This document shows, in pieces, positions 21,333 through 29,703 of a stretch of 64,000 nucleotides of DNA; within the stretch, counting starts at the first letter, position 1; every line of letters starts with the position of its first letter. Origin of the DNA: a virus (lineage: Duplodnaviria > Heunggongvirae > Uroviricota > Caudoviricetes). The notes below the pieces were generated by a model, which was not told the DNA's origin, did no database searches, and worked only from the letters and a program-made list of their open reading frames with translations. The position numbers were made by a program, and so were the translations under genes. The DNA is taken from positions 32,001 to 96,000 of the IMG/VR virus record IMGVR_UViG_2713896909_000009. One strand, 5' to 3'.

Positions 21333-22234
21333 TGCTTAGCCTCTCCACCAAGGGCATTTACCAGAGCATCAACCAGGCACGAAATTTCACTGGTCAACAG
21401 GAAGAAATCTGCGTCCAGTCGCTGCGCAACATCTTCACTATCAATATCAGAGTTCTGCTCAAGCAATTCATCCGCAAATTTGACGCTGGTAAGGCTGAAG
21501 TTATGGTCCAGTGTAAATTTAATGCGGTTCTGCCAGTCGAGTGCCAACTTAGTGACGAGCTTGCCAGCTTCCAGGTGTGTGGAAATTTCATCGCTTCCCA
21601 AATCCTGCTTTTTCACTCGGGCAATACCGCCATCCTCAAGCACTGCCTTAAGTTCTGCCGCATCCCCCATTTGAAATCCCTGTGGAGCACTACCATCACG
21701 TACCCAGTCGGTCAGCGTTAATTCAATGGGATTTTCAACACTTAGGGGAACAACAGGAAGAGAACCCAGAGACTTACGCATAAGTGCGAGCATATCCTCT
21801 GCCTGCCGCGCGCAGGCATTGATATAGATACGTTTAGTTGAACGATCGTAGATCGCCTGGATAACAGAAAACTTTGAAAAAGCCCGTGGCAGAAGAGAAT
21901 GCAGAACTTCGTCTTTCAGGGAATCCTTTTCTGTTTTCTTCAGTTTACGCGCTTGTTCTTGCTCAAGTTTTTCAATTTTTTCTTGAATAGCTCGCTGGAT
22001 AACCGGCAGGGGAAGAATTTTTGTTTCGCGCTTTGCTTCAACAAGGATAAAACCATTTCCATGCATAGCGATAACTTCGGAATTATCACCAAATGGCGAT
22101 ACAAAACCGAACTTGGCCATATCCTGACTACCGCATGGCGTGAAAAGGATCATTTTCTTTTTATCTTCTAAGTCGGTCAGATCCGCCTCACGAGAAAGTT
22201 TATAAATAGTAATGTTTTTCCAGTGCTTAAACAT
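21329..22234 (-). CDS. hrdC: RdgC-family recombination-associated protein
   Basis: Collinear with E. coli RdgC from [16 protein letters not shown] ([28 protein letters not shown]); start set at internal ATG 22232-22234 with RBS; stop overlaps dmt start. Confidence 0.85.
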
Positions 22235-22583
22235 GTTGTAACCCTTGAATATCAACCACAGAAAGCTCGTCTTTGTAGAAAAAGGCCAAGTTGTGGCCCC
22301 CCCTCGTTTGAGCGTATGAGCTGGGACCAATTTCGTTCTTCCAGACAAATGGCTTCAAATCCGTACGGCGAAGCATAAAAACGCGATTTGTTCCGCTCTG
22401 ATTCCCAATGAGGCAAAAGCCTTCTTTCACCTTGATAGCCTGCAAGTTGTCGAGTTCACCGCTGGTTACACGGCTATCGAACTCCTTGCGGCTTATTAGC
22501 TCCATCTGCATCTGACGACTCCAAACAAATGCCCATTGAAGGGCGATGGCTGAATGGTACCGAAAACACGACATAAAAAACAA
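22227..22583 (-). CDS. Hypothetical protein upstream of hrdC
   Basis: ORF track 118 aa; TTG start; operator-like site at its 5' end. Confidence 0.4.
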
Positions 22584-22599
22584 TATTTATTAGTGCAAT
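22583..22599 (-). promoter_or_regulatory. C1-operator-like site (15/17)
   Basis: ATATTTATTAGTGCAAT. Confidence 0.45.
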
Positions 22600-22680
22600 T
22601 TTGTAGTAAGTAAACGCCATACAGACCACAAATAACCTAAGTTAAAATAACGAAAATCAGAGCAAATCATTGGTGATGAC

Positions 22681-22965
22681 GTGGCAAGTATTGCAACAAA
22701 AGACAGCATTTGTTCGGGGCACGGAGGATTCCCATCCAGGCCTCCTGTAGAGAGTGAACCACTACTTAAAGTCAACGGAGTCGAAGTGTTAGTTGATGGT
22801 AAGCAATATGCACAGCATACCGATGGAAACAGTACGCACGGTGGGCAAGCTATATCAACCAGGGCATGGTTTACCGTCAATGGTAAAGGGGTCGTATGCG
22901 TTGGTGACCCTGTTTCATGCGGTTCTACCGTAGCGTCAGGAGACGGCCTAGTTCAGGTAAGTTAG
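22681..22965 (+). CDS. Small Cys/Gly-rich protein, possibly PAAR-like spike-tip protein
   Basis: ORF track 94 aa; GTG start; repeated GD, VNG, CG elements. Confidence 0.35.
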   Translation: MASIATKDSICSGHGGFPSRPPVESEPLLKVNGVEVLVDGKQYAQHTDGNSTHGGQAISTRAWFTVNGKGVVCVGDPVSCGSTVASGDGLVQVS

Positions 22966-22973
22966 GAGATATC

Positions 22974-23762
22974 ATGCTGGAAAAAGACTACCAGTTATCC
23001 GCATATAAAAAATTGGCCGCAGCCGGTGGGATGAAAACACCTGGCGCCATAACATCGGCACGAAACAGTGCTAACACGGCAAAACAGCTTGCAGAAGAAT
23101 TGATCGGATTAATTTTGGATACAATTGTCTATCCCGACACTATTACCAGCTATGTTTCAACGATCAGAACAACCACAACCGGCTTAACGAACATTGGAGA
23201 ACTGGCAACTAAGCACGCGGACCTGTTGGCTGGTTATGCAGATCTGTCAATGCTGCTTCAACTCAATATTGGTTGGGATGTTTACTGCCGTGCTAATGAG
23301 CGAGAAGTATCAGAACTGCCGATCTCTATTGCCATTGGTGATGTGACTATTACTAAATCGCTTGAGGACGCTGTAAACGCGCTTAATACATCAAGTTTAG
23401 TCACTGCTATGGGGGAGATTAACCAGACCCTTAACACTGGCTCAGGAAGCTCGTCAGGCTCTGGTTCAGGCGGCGGCACTGCCACTCCCCCACCAGCACT
23501 AACAGAAGAGCAAATTGAATCTCTGAAAGTAGCAACTGAACAGTTTGGGGTTGTTTTCAACCAGACAACAGCGCCCACAACTGCGTTACAACAGCAGTAT
23601 GAACGAGCGAATGAAAGCGCCAACGTAGCCATAACTGCTTATAACCATGCTATCGGTACCGCGCTTGCGGAAGCATCAGCAAATAAGGCCAGCACAGCCA
23701 GCGCAGTCGCCGCTTTGGTTCCTGATTCTGTTCTTGATGAATTAAACAAAGCGGCACGGTAA
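22974..23762 (+). CDS. Hypothetical protein
   Basis: ORF track 22917-23762; start moved to ATG 22974 preceded by AGGAGA; Gly/Ser-rich linker. Confidence 0.55.
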   Translation: MLEKDYQLSAYKKLAAAGGMKTPGAITSARNSANTAKQLAEELIGLILDTIVYPDTITSYVSTIRTTTTGLTNIGELATKHADLLAGYADLSMLLQLNIGWDVYCRANEREVSELPISIAIGDVTITKSLEDAVNALNTSSLVTAMGEINQTLNTGSGSSSGSGSGGGTATPPPALTEEQIESLKVATEQFGVVFNQTTAPTTALQQQYERANESANVAITAYNHAIGTALAEASANKASTASAVAALVPDSVLDELNKAAR

Positions 23763-23801
23763 CAAAGGACTTCATTGATAATTTTTCTTCAGGAGGAAGA
23801 C

Positions 23802-24224
23802 ATGTCATTCTTTTCTACGTTAAAAACAGCTTTGTCTTTGAAGGAGAAACTTGCTGCTACTGGTGTTCTTGTTCTGATTTGCGCACTTGTTGGTGCTGGG
23901 TTTGCATGGGAACGTCATCAGCTAAAGCAAGCCATGGAGAAAATTGGCAGTCTTGATCAGGCTGTTAAGGAACGTGATAAGTCAATAATGGATCTTAACC
24001 AGACCATTGAGACGATGAACAAAGCAGAGCAACATTTTCACAGCCAGGCAGTGAAAAATGAATCAGAACAAGCCAAGTATGCTGACAGGCAAATGGAACG
24101 AAAAGCTGAAGTTCAGAAACAACTTGTTGCGGCGGGTAATGTTCGCCAGCGCATTCCTGCTGACACTCAGCGGTTGCTCCGGGAGTCGATCAGCGAATTT
24201 AACGCCGACGCCGACAAAGATTAA
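23802..24224 (+). CDS. Membrane-anchored coiled-coil protein (i-spanin-like)
   Basis: ATG 23802 after AGGAGGA; N-terminal TM segment ATGVLVLICALVGAGFAW then predicted coiled coil. Confidence 0.4.
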   Translation: MSFFSTLKTALSLKEKLAATGVLVLICALVGAGFAWERHQLKQAMEKIGSLDQAVKERDKSIMDLNQTIETMNKAEQHFHSQAVKNESEQAKYADRQMERKAEVQKQLVAAGNVRQRIPADTQRLLRESISEFNADADKD

Positions 24225-24390
24225 TCACCCTGCCCCCAAAAGTGCGTTTATGTGCAGGATGCCAGAGTTTAGCAGTGAATATTTTGATGATCTGCCAGCC
24301 TATATCCTCGATACAGAAACGATGTTGATGGGGATTAACAGGAAGAATCGCAACGTTAATGATTACAACCGCGCTATCAGCGGTAACTAA
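24139..24390 (+). CDS. Lipoprotein precursor overlapping previous gene out of frame (o-spanin-like)
   Basis: MFASAFLLTLSGC lipobox followed by Pro/Thr-rich segment; ORF track 24058-24390. Confidence 0.4.
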   Translation: MFASAFLLTLSGCSGSRSANLTPTPTKINHPAPKSAFMCRMPEFSSEYFDDLPAYILDTETMLMGINRKNRNVNDYNRAISGN

Positions 24391-24401
24391 AAGGGATTTT
24401 T

Positions 24402-24794
24402 ATGTCTGATAAAGTAACAGTAAAGCAAACTATCAACAAAGCGACTTCAATCTACAAAATTGAGCACATCACAGTTGGCAAGCCAGGATCTGAACAATAC
24501 CGTCATGCTTTCGAGCTTGCCGATCAGCTTGGTTTAAAACACCCGGATTGCATCGAGCATGTATTTCCGACCTATGCTGATGAGCAATGTACTCATGTTC
24601 TTACCGAAGAGGATTTTTTCAGCACTGAAGAACGAGAAGGCGTTGATCGCTGCATTGGTGTGATTTGTTCTTCGGTAAGTGATGAGTTATTCCCTAATGT
24701 GCCTGAATATGGTGGTATTGGATACCAATTCCTGTACGGGGGCGATGAGCTTAAATGCTATGAACATGGTCTTCTCATCGAAAGCGTAGAATAA
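24402..24794 (+). CDS. Hypothetical protein
   Basis: ORF track 130 aa. Confidence 0.55.
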   Translation: MSDKVTVKQTINKATSIYKIEHITVGKPGSEQYRHAFELADQLGLKHPDCIEHVFPTYADEQCTHVLTEEDFFSTEEREGVDRCIGVICSSVSDELFPNVPEYGGIGYQFLYGGDELKCYEHGLLIESVE

Positions 24795-24808
24795 TACAGC
24801 TTCCTTCC

Positions 24809-24833
24809 AACCGGCTTTGTTGGCCGGTTTATT
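24809..24833 (+). terminator. Rho-independent terminator
   Basis: AACCGGC-TTTGTTG-GCCGGTT then T-run. Confidence 0.55.
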
Positions 24834-24837
24834 CAAC

Positions 24838-24846
24838 TTATCCACA
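24838..24846 (+). promoter_or_regulatory. DnaA box (TTATCCACA) at plasmid origin
   Basis: Perfect consensus 9-mer adjacent to GATC cluster and iterons. Confidence 0.55.
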
Positions 24847-24851
24847 GCATA

Positions 24852-24908
24852 GATCCAATAAACAGATCCAAAAGAGAACCCTAGAAGATCCAAATAAGAT
24901 CCCGGATC
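24852..24908. repeat. Cluster of five GATC sites (four AGATCC heptamer-type repeats) of oriR
   Basis: GATC at 24852, 24865, 24887, 24898, 24905. Confidence 0.55.
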
Positions 24909-24949
24909 GCTGCAGGCCGCGCCATGTCTGGCCTGAAACGTGATCAACA

Positions 24950-25056
24950 TTGACTATATGCGATTTTATGTTGACTGTACACGATTTATTGTTGACTACA
25001 CGCGATTTTATGTTGACTATACGCGATATAAACATTGACTGTACGCGATTTTAAAG
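24950..25056 (+). repeat. incC-type iterons (5 direct repeats, about 21-bp period) of the plasmid origin
   Basis: TTGACTATATGCGATTT-like units starting 24950, 24971, 24992, 25013, 25035. Confidence 0.8.
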
Positions 25057-25129
25057 CCTGAATATTCACAGCTGTTGATAACAGCCATCCAAATTGACGT
25101 CAGGTCGCGCCACACATGGAGAAACTACG

Positions 25130-26014
25130 ATGCCGGAAGAAAGTAAAGGCTTCCTTAGCGTTGAAGAAGTTGCAGGAAATACAGGAGAAATCCACAGCCT
25201 GAAGCCCAATAACAACAGCACTATACAACCCATTGCTTTGTTGCGTTTAGGTGTGTTTGTGCCAACCTTAAAATCTACCAATGTGGCGCTACGTCGCGGA
25301 TCGTCAGTTACAACAAACACAACGAACGCAACCGAAGAACTATCAAGCCTCAAAATTGTTGAGCAGGAAGGCTATGAGGGAATTGAAATTCATGGTCCAC
25401 GCTTGGATATGGATACTGATTTTAAGGTGTGGGTGGGCATAACCTCCGCGTTGTTTGACTACGCACCTGATGATGACGGTATAATCACCCTGCCATTCTC
25501 CGAGTTTGCCGATCGATGCGGCTATCCACGTAAGCGCCTTTCAAAGGCGTTCCGTAAAAGTATTGATGACTCTCTGACACGCATTCAGCAGACAGTTGTC
25601 AAATTCCGCTTCCCGGCGGCAAAAGGTCATCTCAATAACATTAACGTCAACTTGTTGGCATATAGCAGCCTGAATACCGAGCTTGATGTTATCGAGATCC
25701 AGCCGCAGAAACAGCTATCTGAACTTTACTATGTTGACTATAAGCGAATCCTGAAGCTGAAGATGCTGGATAAGCTCGGGCGCAAAGAGACGGCCAAGGT
25801 ACTGTATACATTCTTTGAGGCTCTACCCGCCAACCCGGCACCTGTCAGCATTGAGCGCCTTAGAGCAAGGCTTAATCTCAAATCATCCGTTAGCGTGCAA
25901 AATAGCGTTATCAGAAAAGCCATGAAAGATTTGGAAGCTATTGAATATCTTAAATTTTCAGAGATAAAAAACGGCAGGAAAATCGGCTTCCAGATCCATA
26001 AGCGCAATCCATAA
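25130..26014 (+). CDS. repA: Iteron-binding plasmid replication initiator RepA (P1/P7 RepA family, diverged)
   Basis: ORF track 25094-26014; start placed at ATG 25130 (GGAG upstream); GPRLDMDTDFK and flanking iterons. Confidence 0.8.
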   Translation: MPEESKGFLSVEEVAGNTGEIHSLKPNNNSTIQPIALLRLGVFVPTLKSTNVALRRGSSVTTNTTNATEELSSLKIVEQEGYEGIEIHGPRLDMDTDFKVWVGITSALFDYAPDDDGIITLPFSEFADRCGYPRKRLSKAFRKSIDDSLTRIQQTVVKFRFPAAKGHLNNINVNLLAYSSLNTELDVIEIQPQKQLSELYYVDYKRILKLKMLDKLGRKETAKVLYTFFEALPANPAPVSIERLRARLNLKSSVSVQNSVIRKAMKDLEAIEYLKFSEIKNGRKIGFQIHKRNP

Positions 26015-26015
26015 T

Positions 26016-26285
26016 ATTGACTATATGCGATAGCGAGAAGTTGACTATAGACGACATTCGTTGACGCTGGTGGATTTTTGCTGGCGTCAATATTCTGCAA
26101 GTCGCTATTGAGATGGCTTTTAGGGTCATTTCATCGCGTATAGTCAACGTTTCTCCCGACAATATCTTACATAGTCGATCTTTGGTGGAGTTAAATCGAT
26201 TACAGTCAACTTTTGACTGTAGTCACATCGCGCATAGTCAACTATTCACATTAACCTTCGCGCATAGTCAACATTTGCGCGGTTC
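26016..26285. repeat. incA-type iteron array (about 9 copies, both orientations)
   Basis: TTGACTATA / TATAGTCAA-containing units repeated downstream of repA. Confidence 0.7.
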
Positions 26286-26306
26286 TCATCAAGCAGTGGT
26301 ATTGAT

Positions 26307-27116
26307 ATGCAAGAAGAGAAACAACACTACCTCTACGTTCTGGTGCCGGAGAACGGAGATACTTTTAAAATCGGCATTTCATGTGGTCCATTGGCACGGT
26401 TTAAAGGGCTACAAGTGAGTCCCGATTTTGCGCTTTCACGGGTCTATCGTGGTACGCGTTTGGCAATGGTTAATCTTGAGCGGGCTTTACACGCAACCTT
26501 TTTCCCCTGGAATGCGCCGTGGGAGAAAAGCGCCGGTGGCGGGCATGCTGAATGGTTTACACGAGAGTGTCTTGATAAGGTTTTGGCTCATATCGAATAT
26601 CTAAATGATATGTGGGGAGTGATTCTCGAGCGCATTAAGTCGAATGATTTACTTCAGCGTCCAGTAGATGCTGCTCGCTCTTTCGAAAAAGAACTGGATG
26701 TTACTTCTATCGTGACTTTCAAAGATGACGCAGGAATGAGGGACGTGGCTTATGTCTCCATATCTGGCTATGACCCGGACGCGATCCGCGCTCAATGTGA
26801 ATTGCTGAAAGCAATGTTTATGCTTCGGACTAAATATCCCTGGGAGACAGGGCGGGTGTGCTTCCCTATGGAAGAGTTAACCGCCACCATTGATTCCCAG
26901 CTTTACCACGATAATCCAGAGAAGTTTTTTAGCCTTTTAACCGGTAATGGGCTTAACTGTGTGTCCGGGCTGGGGCGAAGTAGAATCCAACATGCCTCGC
27001 TCTTCGGTCCCTTCTTTTACGATCGACACGGGTACTTTGAGGCTGAACTTCCGGCGCTTACGCGTGCTATAGATACTATCGATTTCGAACGATTATTCGC
27101 TGCTCTTAGCAAATAA
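26307..27116 (+). CDS. T5orf172 (GIY-YIG-like) domain protein
   Basis: ORF track 269 aa; YLYVLVPENGDTFKIGIS...LHATFFPW...AEWF matches T5orf172 pattern; not part of the P1 repA-parA interval as recalled. Confidence 0.5.
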   Translation: MQEEKQHYLYVLVPENGDTFKIGISCGPLARFKGLQVSPDFALSRVYRGTRLAMVNLERALHATFFPWNAPWEKSAGGGHAEWFTRECLDKVLAHIEYLNDMWGVILERIKSNDLLQRPVDAARSFEKELDVTSIVTFKDDAGMRDVAYVSISGYDPDAIRAQCELLKAMFMLRTKYPWETGRVCFPMEELTATIDSQLYHDNPEKFFSLLTGNGLNCVSGLGRSRIQHASLFGPFFYDRHGYFEAELPALTRAIDTIDFERLFAALSK

Positions 27117-27123
27117 CACTGAT

Positions 27124-27145
27124 GCCCCTGAACGGGGCTTTTTTG
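27124..27145 (+). terminator. Rho-independent terminator
   Basis: GCCCC-TGAAC-GGGGC then TTTTTT. Confidence 0.6.
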
Positions 27146-27284
27146 TGCCCTCCTTGCAACGCTCAATCGTGCAAAATGAACTAAACATGCAGAGAATACT
27201 ATGTACAAGCATCTACGCATACATTATTATTTTATGTAGCATTTTTAATTAAATTCAAAAATACAGCATAAAGGATGACTTTCG

Positions 27285-28481
27285 ATGAGTGATTCCAGCC
27301 AGCTTCACAAGGTTGCTCAAAGAGCAAACAGAATGCTCAATGTTCTGACTGAACAAGTACAGTTGCAAAAGGATGAGCTACACGCGAACGAGTTTTACCA
27401 GGTCTATGCGAAAGCGGCACTGGCAAAATTGCCTCTACTGACTCGAGCGAACGTTGACTATGCCGTAAGTGAAATGGAAGAAAAGGGTTATGTTTTCGAT
27501 AAACGCCCTGCTGGCTCTTCAATGAAATATGCGATGTCAATTCAGAACATCATTGACATATATGAACATCGCGGAGTGCCAAAATACCGGGATCGCTACA
27601 GCGAAGCGTATGTGATTTTCATCTCCAATCTTAAAGGCGGTGTGTCAAAAACTGTATCGACGGTTTCTCTGGCGCATGCAATGCGTGCTCACCCTCATCT
27701 TCTGATGGAAGATTTAAGGATTCTGGTTATTGACCTTGATCCGCAATCTTCAGCAACGATGTTTTTAAGCCATAAACACTCTATTGGTATCGTAAACGCA
27801 ACATCTGCACAGGCTATGTTGCAGAATGTAAGCCGTGAAGAGCTGTTAGAGGAGTTTATTGTTCCTTCTGTTGTACCTGGGGTTGACGTTATGCCTGCGT
27901 CGATTGACGATGCCTTTATTGCATCCGATTGGAGAGAGCTATGCAATGAGCATCTACCGGGTCAGAACATCCATGCAGTCCTGAAAGAAAATGTGATTGA
28001 TAAGCTCAAGAGCGATTATGACTTTATCCTTGTTGATAGTGGTCCTCACCTTGACGCCTTCCTGAAAAATGCTTTGGCCTCGGCCAATATACTGTTTACA
28101 CCTCTGCCACCAGCAACGGTCGATTTCCACTCATCGCTTAAATACGTTGCCCGCCTTCCTGAGTTGGTGAAACTCATTTCGGATGAAGGCTGCGAGTGCC
28201 AGCTTGCGACTAACATTGGTTTTATGTCCAAGTTGAGTAACAAGGCAGACCATAAGTATTGCCATAGCCTGGCGAAAGAAGTTTTCGGTGGGGATATGCT
28301 CGATGTCGTCCTCCCTCGCCTTGATGGTTTCGAACGCTGCGGTGAGTCCTTTGACACTGTTATTTCTGCTAATCCGGCAACGTATGTTGGTAGTGCTGAC
28401 GCACTGAAGAACGCGCGCATCGCCGCTGAAGATTTTGCAAAAGCAGTTTTTGACCGTATTGAATTTATCAGATCTAACTAA
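27285..28481 (+). CDS. parA: Partition ATPase ParA
   Basis: ORF track 398 aa; deviant Walker A KGGVSKT; N-terminal HTH region; matches recalled P1 ParA. Confidence 0.9.
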   Translation: MSDSSQLHKVAQRANRMLNVLTEQVQLQKDELHANEFYQVYAKAALAKLPLLTRANVDYAVSEMEEKGYVFDKRPAGSSMKYAMSIQNIIDIYEHRGVPKYRDRYSEAYVIFISNLKGGVSKTVSTVSLAHAMRAHPHLLMEDLRILVIDLDPQSSATMFLSHKHSIGIVNATSAQAMLQNVSREELLEEFIVPSVVPGVDVMPASIDDAFIASDWRELCNEHLPGQNIHAVLKENVIDKLKSDYDFILVDSGPHLDAFLKNALASANILFTPLPPATVDFHSSLKYVARLPELVKLISDEGCECQLATNIGFMSKLSNKADHKYCHSLAKEVFGGDMLDVVLPRLDGFERCGESFDTVISANPATYVGSADALKNARIAAEDFAKAVFDRIEFIRSN

Positions 28482-28497
28482 GGAGTAAGAAAACGCC

Positions 28498-29499
28498 ATG
28501 TCAAAGAAAAACAGACCAACAATTGGGCGAACCCTTAATCCTTCAGTATTAAGCGCATTTGATAGTTCCTCTACCTCTGGTGATCGGGTTGAGCAGGTAT
28601 TCAAGCTATCAACAGGTCTCCAGGCCACATTCATTGAGGAGGTAATCCCTCCGAACCGGGTAGAAGGTGATACCTTTGTTGATCAGCATAACAACGGACG
28701 TGATCAGGCAGCTCTTACACCAAAATCATTAAAAAGCATCAGAAGCACCATTAAGCATCAGCAATTTTATCCAGCAATAGGTGTTAGACGGGCTACAGGA
28801 AAAATTGAAATTTTGGATGGTTCCCGGCGTCGAGCTTCGGCCATCTTAGAGCACGTTGGATTGCGGGTTTTAGTCACGGATCAGGATATCAGCGTTCAGG
28901 AAGCGCAAAATTTAGCGAAAGACCTTCAGACAGCATTGCAGCATAGCATTCGAGAAATAGGTCTGCGTTTGATGCGAATGAAAAATGATGGAATGAGTCA
29001 GAAGGATATTGCCGCTAAAGAAGGTCTATCTCAGGCGAAGGTCACGCGTGCTCTTCAGGCTGCGAGCGCTCCGGAAGAATTAGTCGCTCTTTTCCCTGTG
29101 CAGTCGGAATTAACCTTTTCGGACTACAAAACGCTTTGCGCTGTTGGCGATGAAATGGGGAATAAGGATTTAGAGTTTGATCAGCTTATTCAAAACATAT
29201 CCCAGGAAATAAACGACATCTTATCCATTGAAGAAATGGCCGAAGATGAAGTGAAAAATAAAATCCTTCGCCTGATAACAAAGGAAGCCTCGTTACTCAC
29301 GGATAAAGGCTCTAAAGATAAGTCTGTAGTTACTGAATTATGGAAATTTGAGGATAAAGATCGTTTCGCAAGGAAGCGTGTGAAAGGCCGTACCTTTTCC
29401 TATGAGTTTAATCGTCTCTCCAAAGAGTTACAGGAAGAACTTGACAGGATGATTGGGCATATCCTTAGAAAGAGCCTCGATAAAAAGCCGAAGCCTTAA
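28498..29499 (+). CDS. parB: Partition centromere-binding protein ParB
   Basis: ORF track 333 aa; matches recalled P1 ParB; followed by parS. Confidence 0.9.
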   Translation: MSKKNRPTIGRTLNPSVLSAFDSSSTSGDRVEQVFKLSTGLQATFIEEVIPPNRVEGDTFVDQHNNGRDQAALTPKSLKSIRSTIKHQQFYPAIGVRRATGKIEILDGSRRRASAILEHVGLRVLVTDQDISVQEAQNLAKDLQTALQHSIREIGLRLMRMKNDGMSQKDIAAKEGLSQAKVTRALQAASAPEELVALFPVQSELTFSDYKTLCAVGDEMGNKDLEFDQLIQNISQEINDILSIEEMAEDEVKNKILRLITKEASLLTDKGSKDKSVVTELWKFEDKDRFARKRVKGRTFSYEFNRLSKELQEELDRMIGHILRKSLDKKPKP

Positions 29500-29502
29500 A
29501 CT

Positions 29503-29592
29503 TTCGCCATTGAAATTTCATTTGTAACCATCTGTTTTTAAAGTAAATTCATCTAAAATTTCAAGGTGAAATCGCCACGATTTCACCTTGGA
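29503..29592. promoter_or_regulatory. parS centromere (ParB box A ATTTCAC-type heptamers and box B TCGCCA hexamers around an AT-rich bend site)
   Basis: TCGCCA at 29504 and 29574; ATTTCA/TGAAAT heptamers at about 29514, 29557, 29567, 29582. Confidence 0.7.
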
Positions 29593-29655
29593 TTTTACCC
29601 TCCTCCCCTATCCCTACAAAAAATAAAAAAATTACTTTTCGCGAGAAAGTCAACA

Positions 29656-29673
29656 AGTGACTTTTAATAAAAT
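29656..29673 (+). promoter_or_regulatory. Putative late promoter element (degenerate copy)
   Basis: AGTGACTTTTAATAAAAT about 30 nt upstream of capsid gene start. Confidence 0.3.
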
Positions 29674-29703
29674 CTCTTCCGAAAAGGGATTCACACAAGT
29701 GCC

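Follow-up and report, generated by a model that had tools for sequence, protein, structure and literature searches.

In phage P1, as the earlier note stated, the incA iterons of the replicon run straight to the parA promoter: the spacer between the last incA iteron and the −35 element of Ppar in NC_005856 is 190 bp long and contains no coding sequence. In the DNA analyzed here, a stretch of 64,000 nucleotides from a P1-like phage-plasmid (positions 32,001 to 96,000 of IMG/VR record IMGVR_UViG_2713896909_000009; hereinafter the window), this place is taken by an open reading frame for a protein of 269 aa, which has an ATG start and occupies positions 26307..27116 of the plus strand. What does this gene encode, how did it come to lie between the replication and partition systems and what may it do there?

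Aligned with the P1 locus by blastn, the window is homologous to it in the regions 21930–24932 (95.6% identity) and 27182–30000 (95.3%), with no match between 24932 and 27182. The insertion between iterons and partition operon that was claimed in the earlier note is thus right as to the position of the gene and its absence from P1, but not as to the exchanged unit, since the whole replicon (24933–27181) is swapped. This segment of 2,249 bp (plus strand) is an alternative replicon cassette of the p0111 type, which replaces the IncY replicon and has no detectable nucleotide homology to that of P1. It is ordered as iterons, repA, iterons, nuclease gene and terminator, and the ORF under study, the T5orf172 gene by its N-terminal domain, is its final member. 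Five incC-like origin iterons (24946..25048, plus strand; family D1 in the repeat search) share the core TTGACTATACGCGA and follow each other with 21–22 bp spacing. Downstream lies repA (25130..26014, plus strand), encoding a p0111-type initiator of 294 aa, which plasmid annotations assign to the RepB family and which has 100% amino acid identity to RepA of RCS47 and 42% to RepA of P1. Six incA-like iterons come next (26013..26276; repeat families D1/D4, inverted pairs I1–I24), two of them in plus orientation (26013, 26037) and four inverted (26134, 26196, 26228, 26258). An 18-nt stretch within the coding region of repA (25730–25747) is 94% identical to the reference iteron. A 101-aa ORF running across the iterons (26113–26418, plus strand) is a gene-calling artefact composed of translated repeats (AHSQH/AYSQH), and so is the 41-aa N-terminal extension, again translated iterons, of a related protein called in the divergent locus L003 (P0004; positions 10001–10123).

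The left breakpoint against P1 falls within oriR and separates the iterons from the DnaA-box/GATC part, which is shared with P1. The right one (27182) lies 66 bp past the stop codon of the ORF, with Ppar following after another 20 bp, so that P1 homology restarts close behind the gene, which thereby stands at an exchange boundary as homing endonuclease genes do. Ppar itself (27202..27230, plus strand), a promoter-like site that corresponds by homology to the promoter annotated in P1, begins the P1-homologous partition module (parA 27285–28481, parB 28498–29499), the ParA protein of which is 99.7% identical to that of P1. The upfA gene of P1 lies upstream of oriR, i.e. on its other side. In that flank UpfB of the window (22917–23762) is 89% identical to its P1 counterpart, and the neighbours upfC, ppfA and upfA are 97–99% identical; UpfB contains a Gly/Ser-rich stretch and retains 55% identity in divergent lineages, which makes upfB a locally fast-evolving gene. 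Escherichia albertii plasmid NZ_CP117630.1 matches the region 24800–27197 with 100% identity, and a replicon of the same p0111 type is present in RCS47, SJ46, JL22 and phi456.

The ATG codon of the T5orf172 gene is situated 31 nt downstream of the last iteron, which ends at 26276. The gene has its own terminator, as the earlier note had it: an intrinsic one (27124..27148, plus strand), whose stem (27124–27138, GCCCC-TGAAC-GGGGC) contains five G-C pairs, starts 8 nt past the stop codon and is followed by the T-run TTTTTTGTGC, closing the cassette. Scanning of the interval between repA and the T5orf172 gene revealed neither a terminator nor, up to the ATG, a promoter-like site on the plus strand; inspection of the upstream region by eye gave no convincing promoter and a weak Shine-Dalgarno sequence. 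No RNA family was found in the region 24700–27400 by the Rfam scan. The GC content of the gene (0.478 versus 0.465 for the rest of the element) and its GC3 both match the surroundings, so there is no compositional sign of recent foreign origin. Conserved homologues and a dN/dS ratio below 1 indicate that the ORF is not a chance one.

The protein divides into two parts. Residues 1–105 (26307..26621, plus strand) form a T5orf172 domain, that is a nuclease domain of the GIY-YIG superfamily, and residues 106–269 (with the stop codon, 26622..27116, plus strand) a linker and a C-terminal orphan domain, predicted to be a winged-helix-like DNA-binding module. The T5orf172 assignment made by eye in the earlier note stood up in the profile search: residues 8–85 match Pfam PF10544 with 26.0 bits (E=1.4e-5), above the gathering score of 20. 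The protein also matches phrog_2876, a family of unknown function, from end to end. Alignment of 100 homologues shows Y10, K21, G23, R31, E58 and E82 to be invariant and G79 nearly so, with H62, W83 and F84 conserved in at least 90% of sequences; all ten residues are kept across the four variants of the gene found in this slot (see below). The predicted N-domain has the alpha/beta fold of GIY-YIG nucleases. Since the invariant residues of the family are retained, the protein is predicted to be catalytically active and not a binder that has been domesticated. Because of the T5orf172 profile match, the label "terminase small subunit" given to the same gene in phage phi456 (OR339795.1, 39982–40788) looks like a misannotation.

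The C-terminal half, described in the earlier note as uncharacterised, has indeed no meaningful Pfam match at E≤10 in any of the four variants. No relevant match was obtained in the PDB sequence search with C-domain and full-length profiles, the NCBIfam scan of the protein gave no match, PADLOC-DB 2.0 yielded 0 defence families at E≤1 and a CxxC zinc-finger motif is absent from the protein. Some guidance is provided by structure prediction. An AlphaFold2 model built from 100 sequences (pLDDT 82) has its best fold matches in three SLX1 chains (scores 8.4, 8.0 and 7.9), followed by MSBI1.176 Rep WH1 (6.1), RepE (5.5), pPS10 RepA (5.1) and RctB (5.1); an earlier model from 3 sequences (pLDDT 63) gave the same fold families. 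Foldseek returned nothing significant for the model, its best matches being SLX1 (probability 0.66) and RepE54 (0.57–0.60), then pPS10 RepA, a Rep-DUE complex and RctB. The predicted secondary structure of the C-terminal half (helices 157–173, 188–194 and 198–211, strands 183–187, 217–222 and 226–231, with a low-confidence wing between the last two) agrees with a winged helix that has additional strands, and we infer that the initiator-like fold matches map to this half. In the models the C-domain would resemble iteron-binding plasmid initiators, with weak scores only. Its comparison with five RepA types gave an hhalign probability of 0.2, and hmmsearch against all ORFs of the window and the RepAs gave nothing; given this lack of similarity, sequence mimicry of a Rep in the style of Odn was rejected.

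How widespread is the gene among relatives? PLSDB contains 776 plasmids with a P1-type capsid gene, 392 with the whole p0111 cassette (at least 80% of 24800–27200 covered), 391 with the nuclease protein over at least 80% of its length (tblastn) and 375 with the P1 IncY replicon and no nuclease gene. About 400 plasmids, as well as 12 phage records, have close copies that are 96–99% identical at the amino acid level. Thus the T5orf172 gene is present in roughly half of P1-like plasmids and is fixed within the p0111 type, of which no nuclease-less allele was registered among about 400 PLSDB plasmids; the sporadic distribution with an empty target allele that characterizes homing endonuclease genes was not observed. 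Comparison of repA–parA intervals, proposed in the earlier note, leaves about half of the relatives without the gene, so it is not a universal backbone component: an essential one would be present and intact in all functional relatives, and this gene is absent from P1 and the 375 IncY plasmids.

Outside plasmid collections, near-identical loci were found once in species-representative genomes and 43 times in IMG/VR. A word-indexed search of 5.8 billion proteins retrieved one cluster at 90% identity (1,241 members), fragments of the protein and the more distant P0004 (43% identity), and an exhaustive profile search among 1.84 billion representatives added as full-length or near-full-length relatives only P0009, which is matched over nearly its whole length, and P0011, which is matched by the profile over the N-terminal ~105 aa and aligned by MAFFT from end to end at 25% identity. 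Distant homologues of the N-domain are encoded in a chromosomal island that also has Mrr_cat and WYL genes, in phage genomes with HNH genes and in a Cupriavidus megaplasmid. They do not adjoin rep or par genes, for which reason a general link between T5orf172 proteins and plasmid replicons was rejected.

Within several P1-like lineages the slot itself is conserved. P0004, P0009 and P0011 are encoded in divergent P1-like contigs (L003, L004/L005 and L006, respectively), where the order Rep, iterons, T5orf172, parA, parB, capsid is the same as in the window and about 20–30 nt separate the last iteron from the nuclease start codon in all four lineages. Identity of these homologues to the window nuclease is 25–43%. 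In L003, which has the same iterons as the window, RepA and ParA are 84% and 89% identical to those of the window and the nuclease 43% (62% in the N-domain, 30% in the C-domain); the respective values for RepA, ParA and nuclease are 42%, 90% and 27% in L004 and 48%, 57% and 30% in L006. Compared with RepA of P1, the three initiators are 41% (L003), 83% (L004) and 44% (L006) identical. The L004 replicon is P1/IncY-like, with 76% nucleotide identity to P1 from oriR to incA, and its nuclease gene starts 18 nt past the last incA iteron. L003 and L004 share ParA (~100% identity), differ in Rep type and have nucleases that are 29% identical, so the nuclease is inherited with the replicon cassette and not with par. 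Homologues in the same slot of three other P1-like lineages also make the nuclease gene an old resident of this place.

Long residence did not bring strong constraint. In 44 close copies the dN/dS ratio was 0.30 for the nuclease gene (0.28 for its N-domain, 0.33 for its C-domain), 0.02 for repA and 0.05 for parB. Premature stops interrupt seven of the 44 (16%): S112* in five copies, W68* and Q228* in one copy each. The nonsense copies include IMG/VR contigs of 97,897 and 103,445 bp, and in the E. coli O111:H- plasmid NC_013370.1 PLSDB gives two products under the tblastn match of the gene. Among sequenced proteins, shortened clusters of 205 and 229 members stand alongside the full-length cluster of 1,241. 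The nonsense alleles are recurrent, affecting L015, L044 and five further IMG/VR loci at codons 68, 112 and 228; the five contigs with S112* encode the complete nuclease domain without the C-domain, and the 229-member cluster (P0003) consists of C-terminal fragments of 168 aa, which suggests that in W68* alleles translation may re-initiate at M102.

The gene has also been lost altogether. Salmonella Newport plasmids with a replicon of the L006 type (RepA 99% identical) lack 892 bp at this place. Alignment of one of them (L056, NZ_CP077703.1, 2900–2945) with L006 (5105–6020) revealed that the nuclease ATG, the first codons and the terminator T-run are kept. The retained ORF start and terminator tail mark this site as a deletion remnant, not a virgin site, and by this alignment absence of the gene is a secondary deletion in at least one lineage. 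In a Salmonella Wandsworth plasmid with IncY-like iterons (L058) the last iteron runs directly into the sequence found behind the gene in L004. In L004 the additional segment has the iteron-core motif CAGCACA at both ends (7975–7990 and 8905–8925; 3980–4010 in L058), and the gene-less plasmid looks like the result of recombination between the two CAGCACA copies, unless the gene is situated inside the iteron array. L006 with L056 and L004 with L058 thus make presence/absence pairs at the nuclease locus, a polymorphism of the kind known for homing genes. In the spacer between incA and Ppar of P1 neither local DNA alignment nor tblastn detected any remnant of the nuclease gene. A maintenance module with IncY repA is also found in another context: in L055 (NZ_CP021681.1, 3661–7088) it is combined with parA and parB encoding 401 and 321 aa, sizes that are those of L006 and L056 and not of P1, on a plasmid typed as conjugative (MOBC, MPF_T), i.e. 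it is reused outside the phage backbone.

Judging from these alignments, the nuclease gene is dispensable and weakly constrained. The accessory or selfish character that the earlier note had suspected from its position is borne out by its absence from P1 and IncY plasmids, by nonsense alleles in seven of the 44 copies, by the deletion in one lineage and by a dN/dS ratio ~6–15 times that of parB and repA. As to the role of such a gene, the account we prefer, tentatively and with a confidence just short of an even chance, is that of an accessory passenger encoding a site-specific nuclease that resembles homing endonucleases, is linked to the replicon and serves mobile elements in competing with each other. 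Its N-terminal ~105 aa would be the catalytic domain of the T5orf172 clade of GIY-YIG enzymes, and the fast-evolving winged-helix-like module of ~140 aa at the C-terminus would recognize the DNA target. The gene would be transcribed in the plasmid-prophage state, probably by low-level read-through from the repA promoter autoregulated by RepA, with its terminator stopping transcription and thereby insulating Ppar. The nuclease may then cut a site in rival P1-like elements devoid of the cassette, so that repair from the nuclease-carrying element would co-convert the adjacent heterologous replicon; alternatively, the rival may simply be destroyed.

Competition of this kind would explain why each nuclease variant is strictly tied to one Rep type, why the exchange boundary lies 66 bp past the stop codon, why the gene is fixed in the p0111 lineage and why it decays by nonsense mutations and deletion after targets run out. 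By analogy, it fits the published pattern of T5orf172 nuclease genes at genetic-exchange boundaries (PMC10448857), and Odn of phage ICP1, discussed below, is a further precedent. Several observations are at variance with homing. A nuclease-less p0111-type allele, the expected target, is missing among the about 400 plasmids; residence in one slot across lineages with 67–70% nucleotide identity is unlike the sporadic occurrence of typical homing genes; the P1 spacer contains no remnant; and the ATG is preceded by no plus-strand promoter-like site and only a weak Shine-Dalgarno sequence. Moreover, a dN/dS of 0.3 combined with nonsense alleles is equally expected of a costly defence gene.

This last point leads to the next explanation, according to which the nuclease is expressed from the plasmid prophage to the benefit of the host and the prophage and serves for defence or superinfection exclusion against incoming unrelated phage or plasmid DNA, with no relation to homing or replicon exchange. 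Presence of the family-invariant residues and likely expression of this prophage region in lysogeny agree with it, as do frequent inactivation, rapid divergence of the putative recognition domain (30% identity of the C-domain versus 84% of RepA in L003) and a distant N-domain homologue adjoining Mrr_cat and WYL genes. Yet the two domains have similar dN/dS ratios, without focused positive selection, and PADLOC models gave no match. Nor does the slot attract cargo in general, as only the T5orf172 family was found there, and a generic defence gene would not be expected to be strictly tied to a Rep type. We therefore regard defence as unlikely, though worth keeping in mind.

More improbable is an Odn-like nuclease, in which an initiator-mimicking winged helix would bind iterons of a rival, e.g. 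of the IncY type, and destroy competitors sharing the same par and immunity. A precedent is Odn of phage ICP1 (gp88), in which a T5orf172 nuclease has been redirected against the iterons of an origin (Barth et al. 2021, PMC8263062). The practical identity of ParA in the window and P1 implies that the two replicon types would compete within one cell. After SLX1 the closest folds belong mostly to iteron-binding initiators (Pi in addition to those listed above), on which two models and two programs concur, and the Foldseek probability for RepE approaches that for SLX1, whose likeness to the N-domain is backed by the profile match. Against this stand the lack of sequence similarity to any of the five RepA types and the divergence of the C-domain between the window and L003: it has fallen to 30% identity at the same iterons and so does not track its own iterons, nor is there any sign that it tracks foreign ones. 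It is accordingly doubtful, to the same degree, that the C-domain is an initiator-derived winged helix reading rival iterons and that replicon-linked "incompatibility nucleases" of this sort cut the origins of competitors and drive replicon replacement. Least probable of all is a replication or partition accessory, or a domesticated regulator acting near incA or Ppar to tune copy number or par expression: the unchanged placement of the gene, between incA and Ppar in each of four lineages, its probable co-transcription with repA and the precedent of CapR, a T5orf172-derived repressor of capsid genes, are outweighed by replication and partition of P1, IncY relatives and several Salmonella lineages without the gene, by nonsense alleles in 16% of copies, by the retained invariant residues of the N-domain, which disagree with pure domestication, and by a constraint some 15-fold below that on repA.

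ESBL and mcr genes of E. coli and Salmonella are often found on P1-like phage-plasmids, about half of which have the IncY and about half the p0111 replicon. Should the nuclease cut rivals, as assumed in the preferred homing and competition account, it would offer a mechanism for whole-replicon swaps between near-identical phage-plasmids and for displacement of one replicon type by another, and plasmid incompatibility would appear as an active, nuclease-driven process. The picture of T5orf172 homing and of Odn would then cover temperate plasmid prophages besides lytic vibriophages, and the family would gain a non-zinc-finger, initiator-like DNA-binding module. Were the reading with incompatibility nucleases true, the gene would be a plasmid counterpart of Odn from ICP1. 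Even as a mere decaying passenger it would be a useful marker of replicon-cassette ancestry.

The gene, the cassette swap and the catalytic family are already known. Replacement of repA(IncY) by repA'(p0111) together with an unknown gene has been described (PMC9603915, PMC6906374): in JL22 the same gene is "gp57", an unknown ORF (PMC9603915), and Venturini et al. mention for pSvP1 "2 orfs inserted between repA and parA" (PMC6906374), so its existence, though not its nature, is on record. The p0111-type replicon of JL22 and pSvP1 has the same gene in the same place as the window. What appears to be new is the predicted architecture, T5orf172 with a winged-helix-like orphan domain devoid of zinc fingers; conservation of the slot, according to the loci compared, in divergent lineages of P1-like elements with three different Rep types, with linkage to the replicon cassette; and the relaxed constraint, pseudogenes, deletion remnant and recurrent loss that sequence comparison points to. 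Compared with SLX1 and with GIY-YIG nucleases such as I-TevI and the UvrC N-domain, the protein differs in sequence (11–18% identity, with the T5orf172-type KIG for YIG), in partner domains and in biology. It resembles Odn as a T5orf172 nuclease with a putatively initiator-like DNA-binding domain and as a putative weapon in mobile-element conflict, but its likeness to Rep_3-type winged-helix domains is weak and confined to the fold level, with no sequence similarity to RepA. The closest parallel is provided by phage T5orf172 genes, which are homing endonuclease genes at genetic-exchange boundaries and in 87% of cases carry CapR/DUF723/DUF4397 zinc fingers (Barth, Dunham & Seed 2023, PMC10448857). 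Unlike them, the gene of the window has a winged-helix-like orphan domain at the C-terminus in place of such a finger, is located in the replication/partition region of a temperate phage-plasmid and is fixed in one replicon lineage instead of being sporadic. Like the free-standing homing genes of ICP1, T5-like and other phages, it is predicted to fuse the catalytic domain to a separate DNA-binding region, stands alone beside essential genes at an exchange boundary and displays both presence/absence polymorphism and decay.
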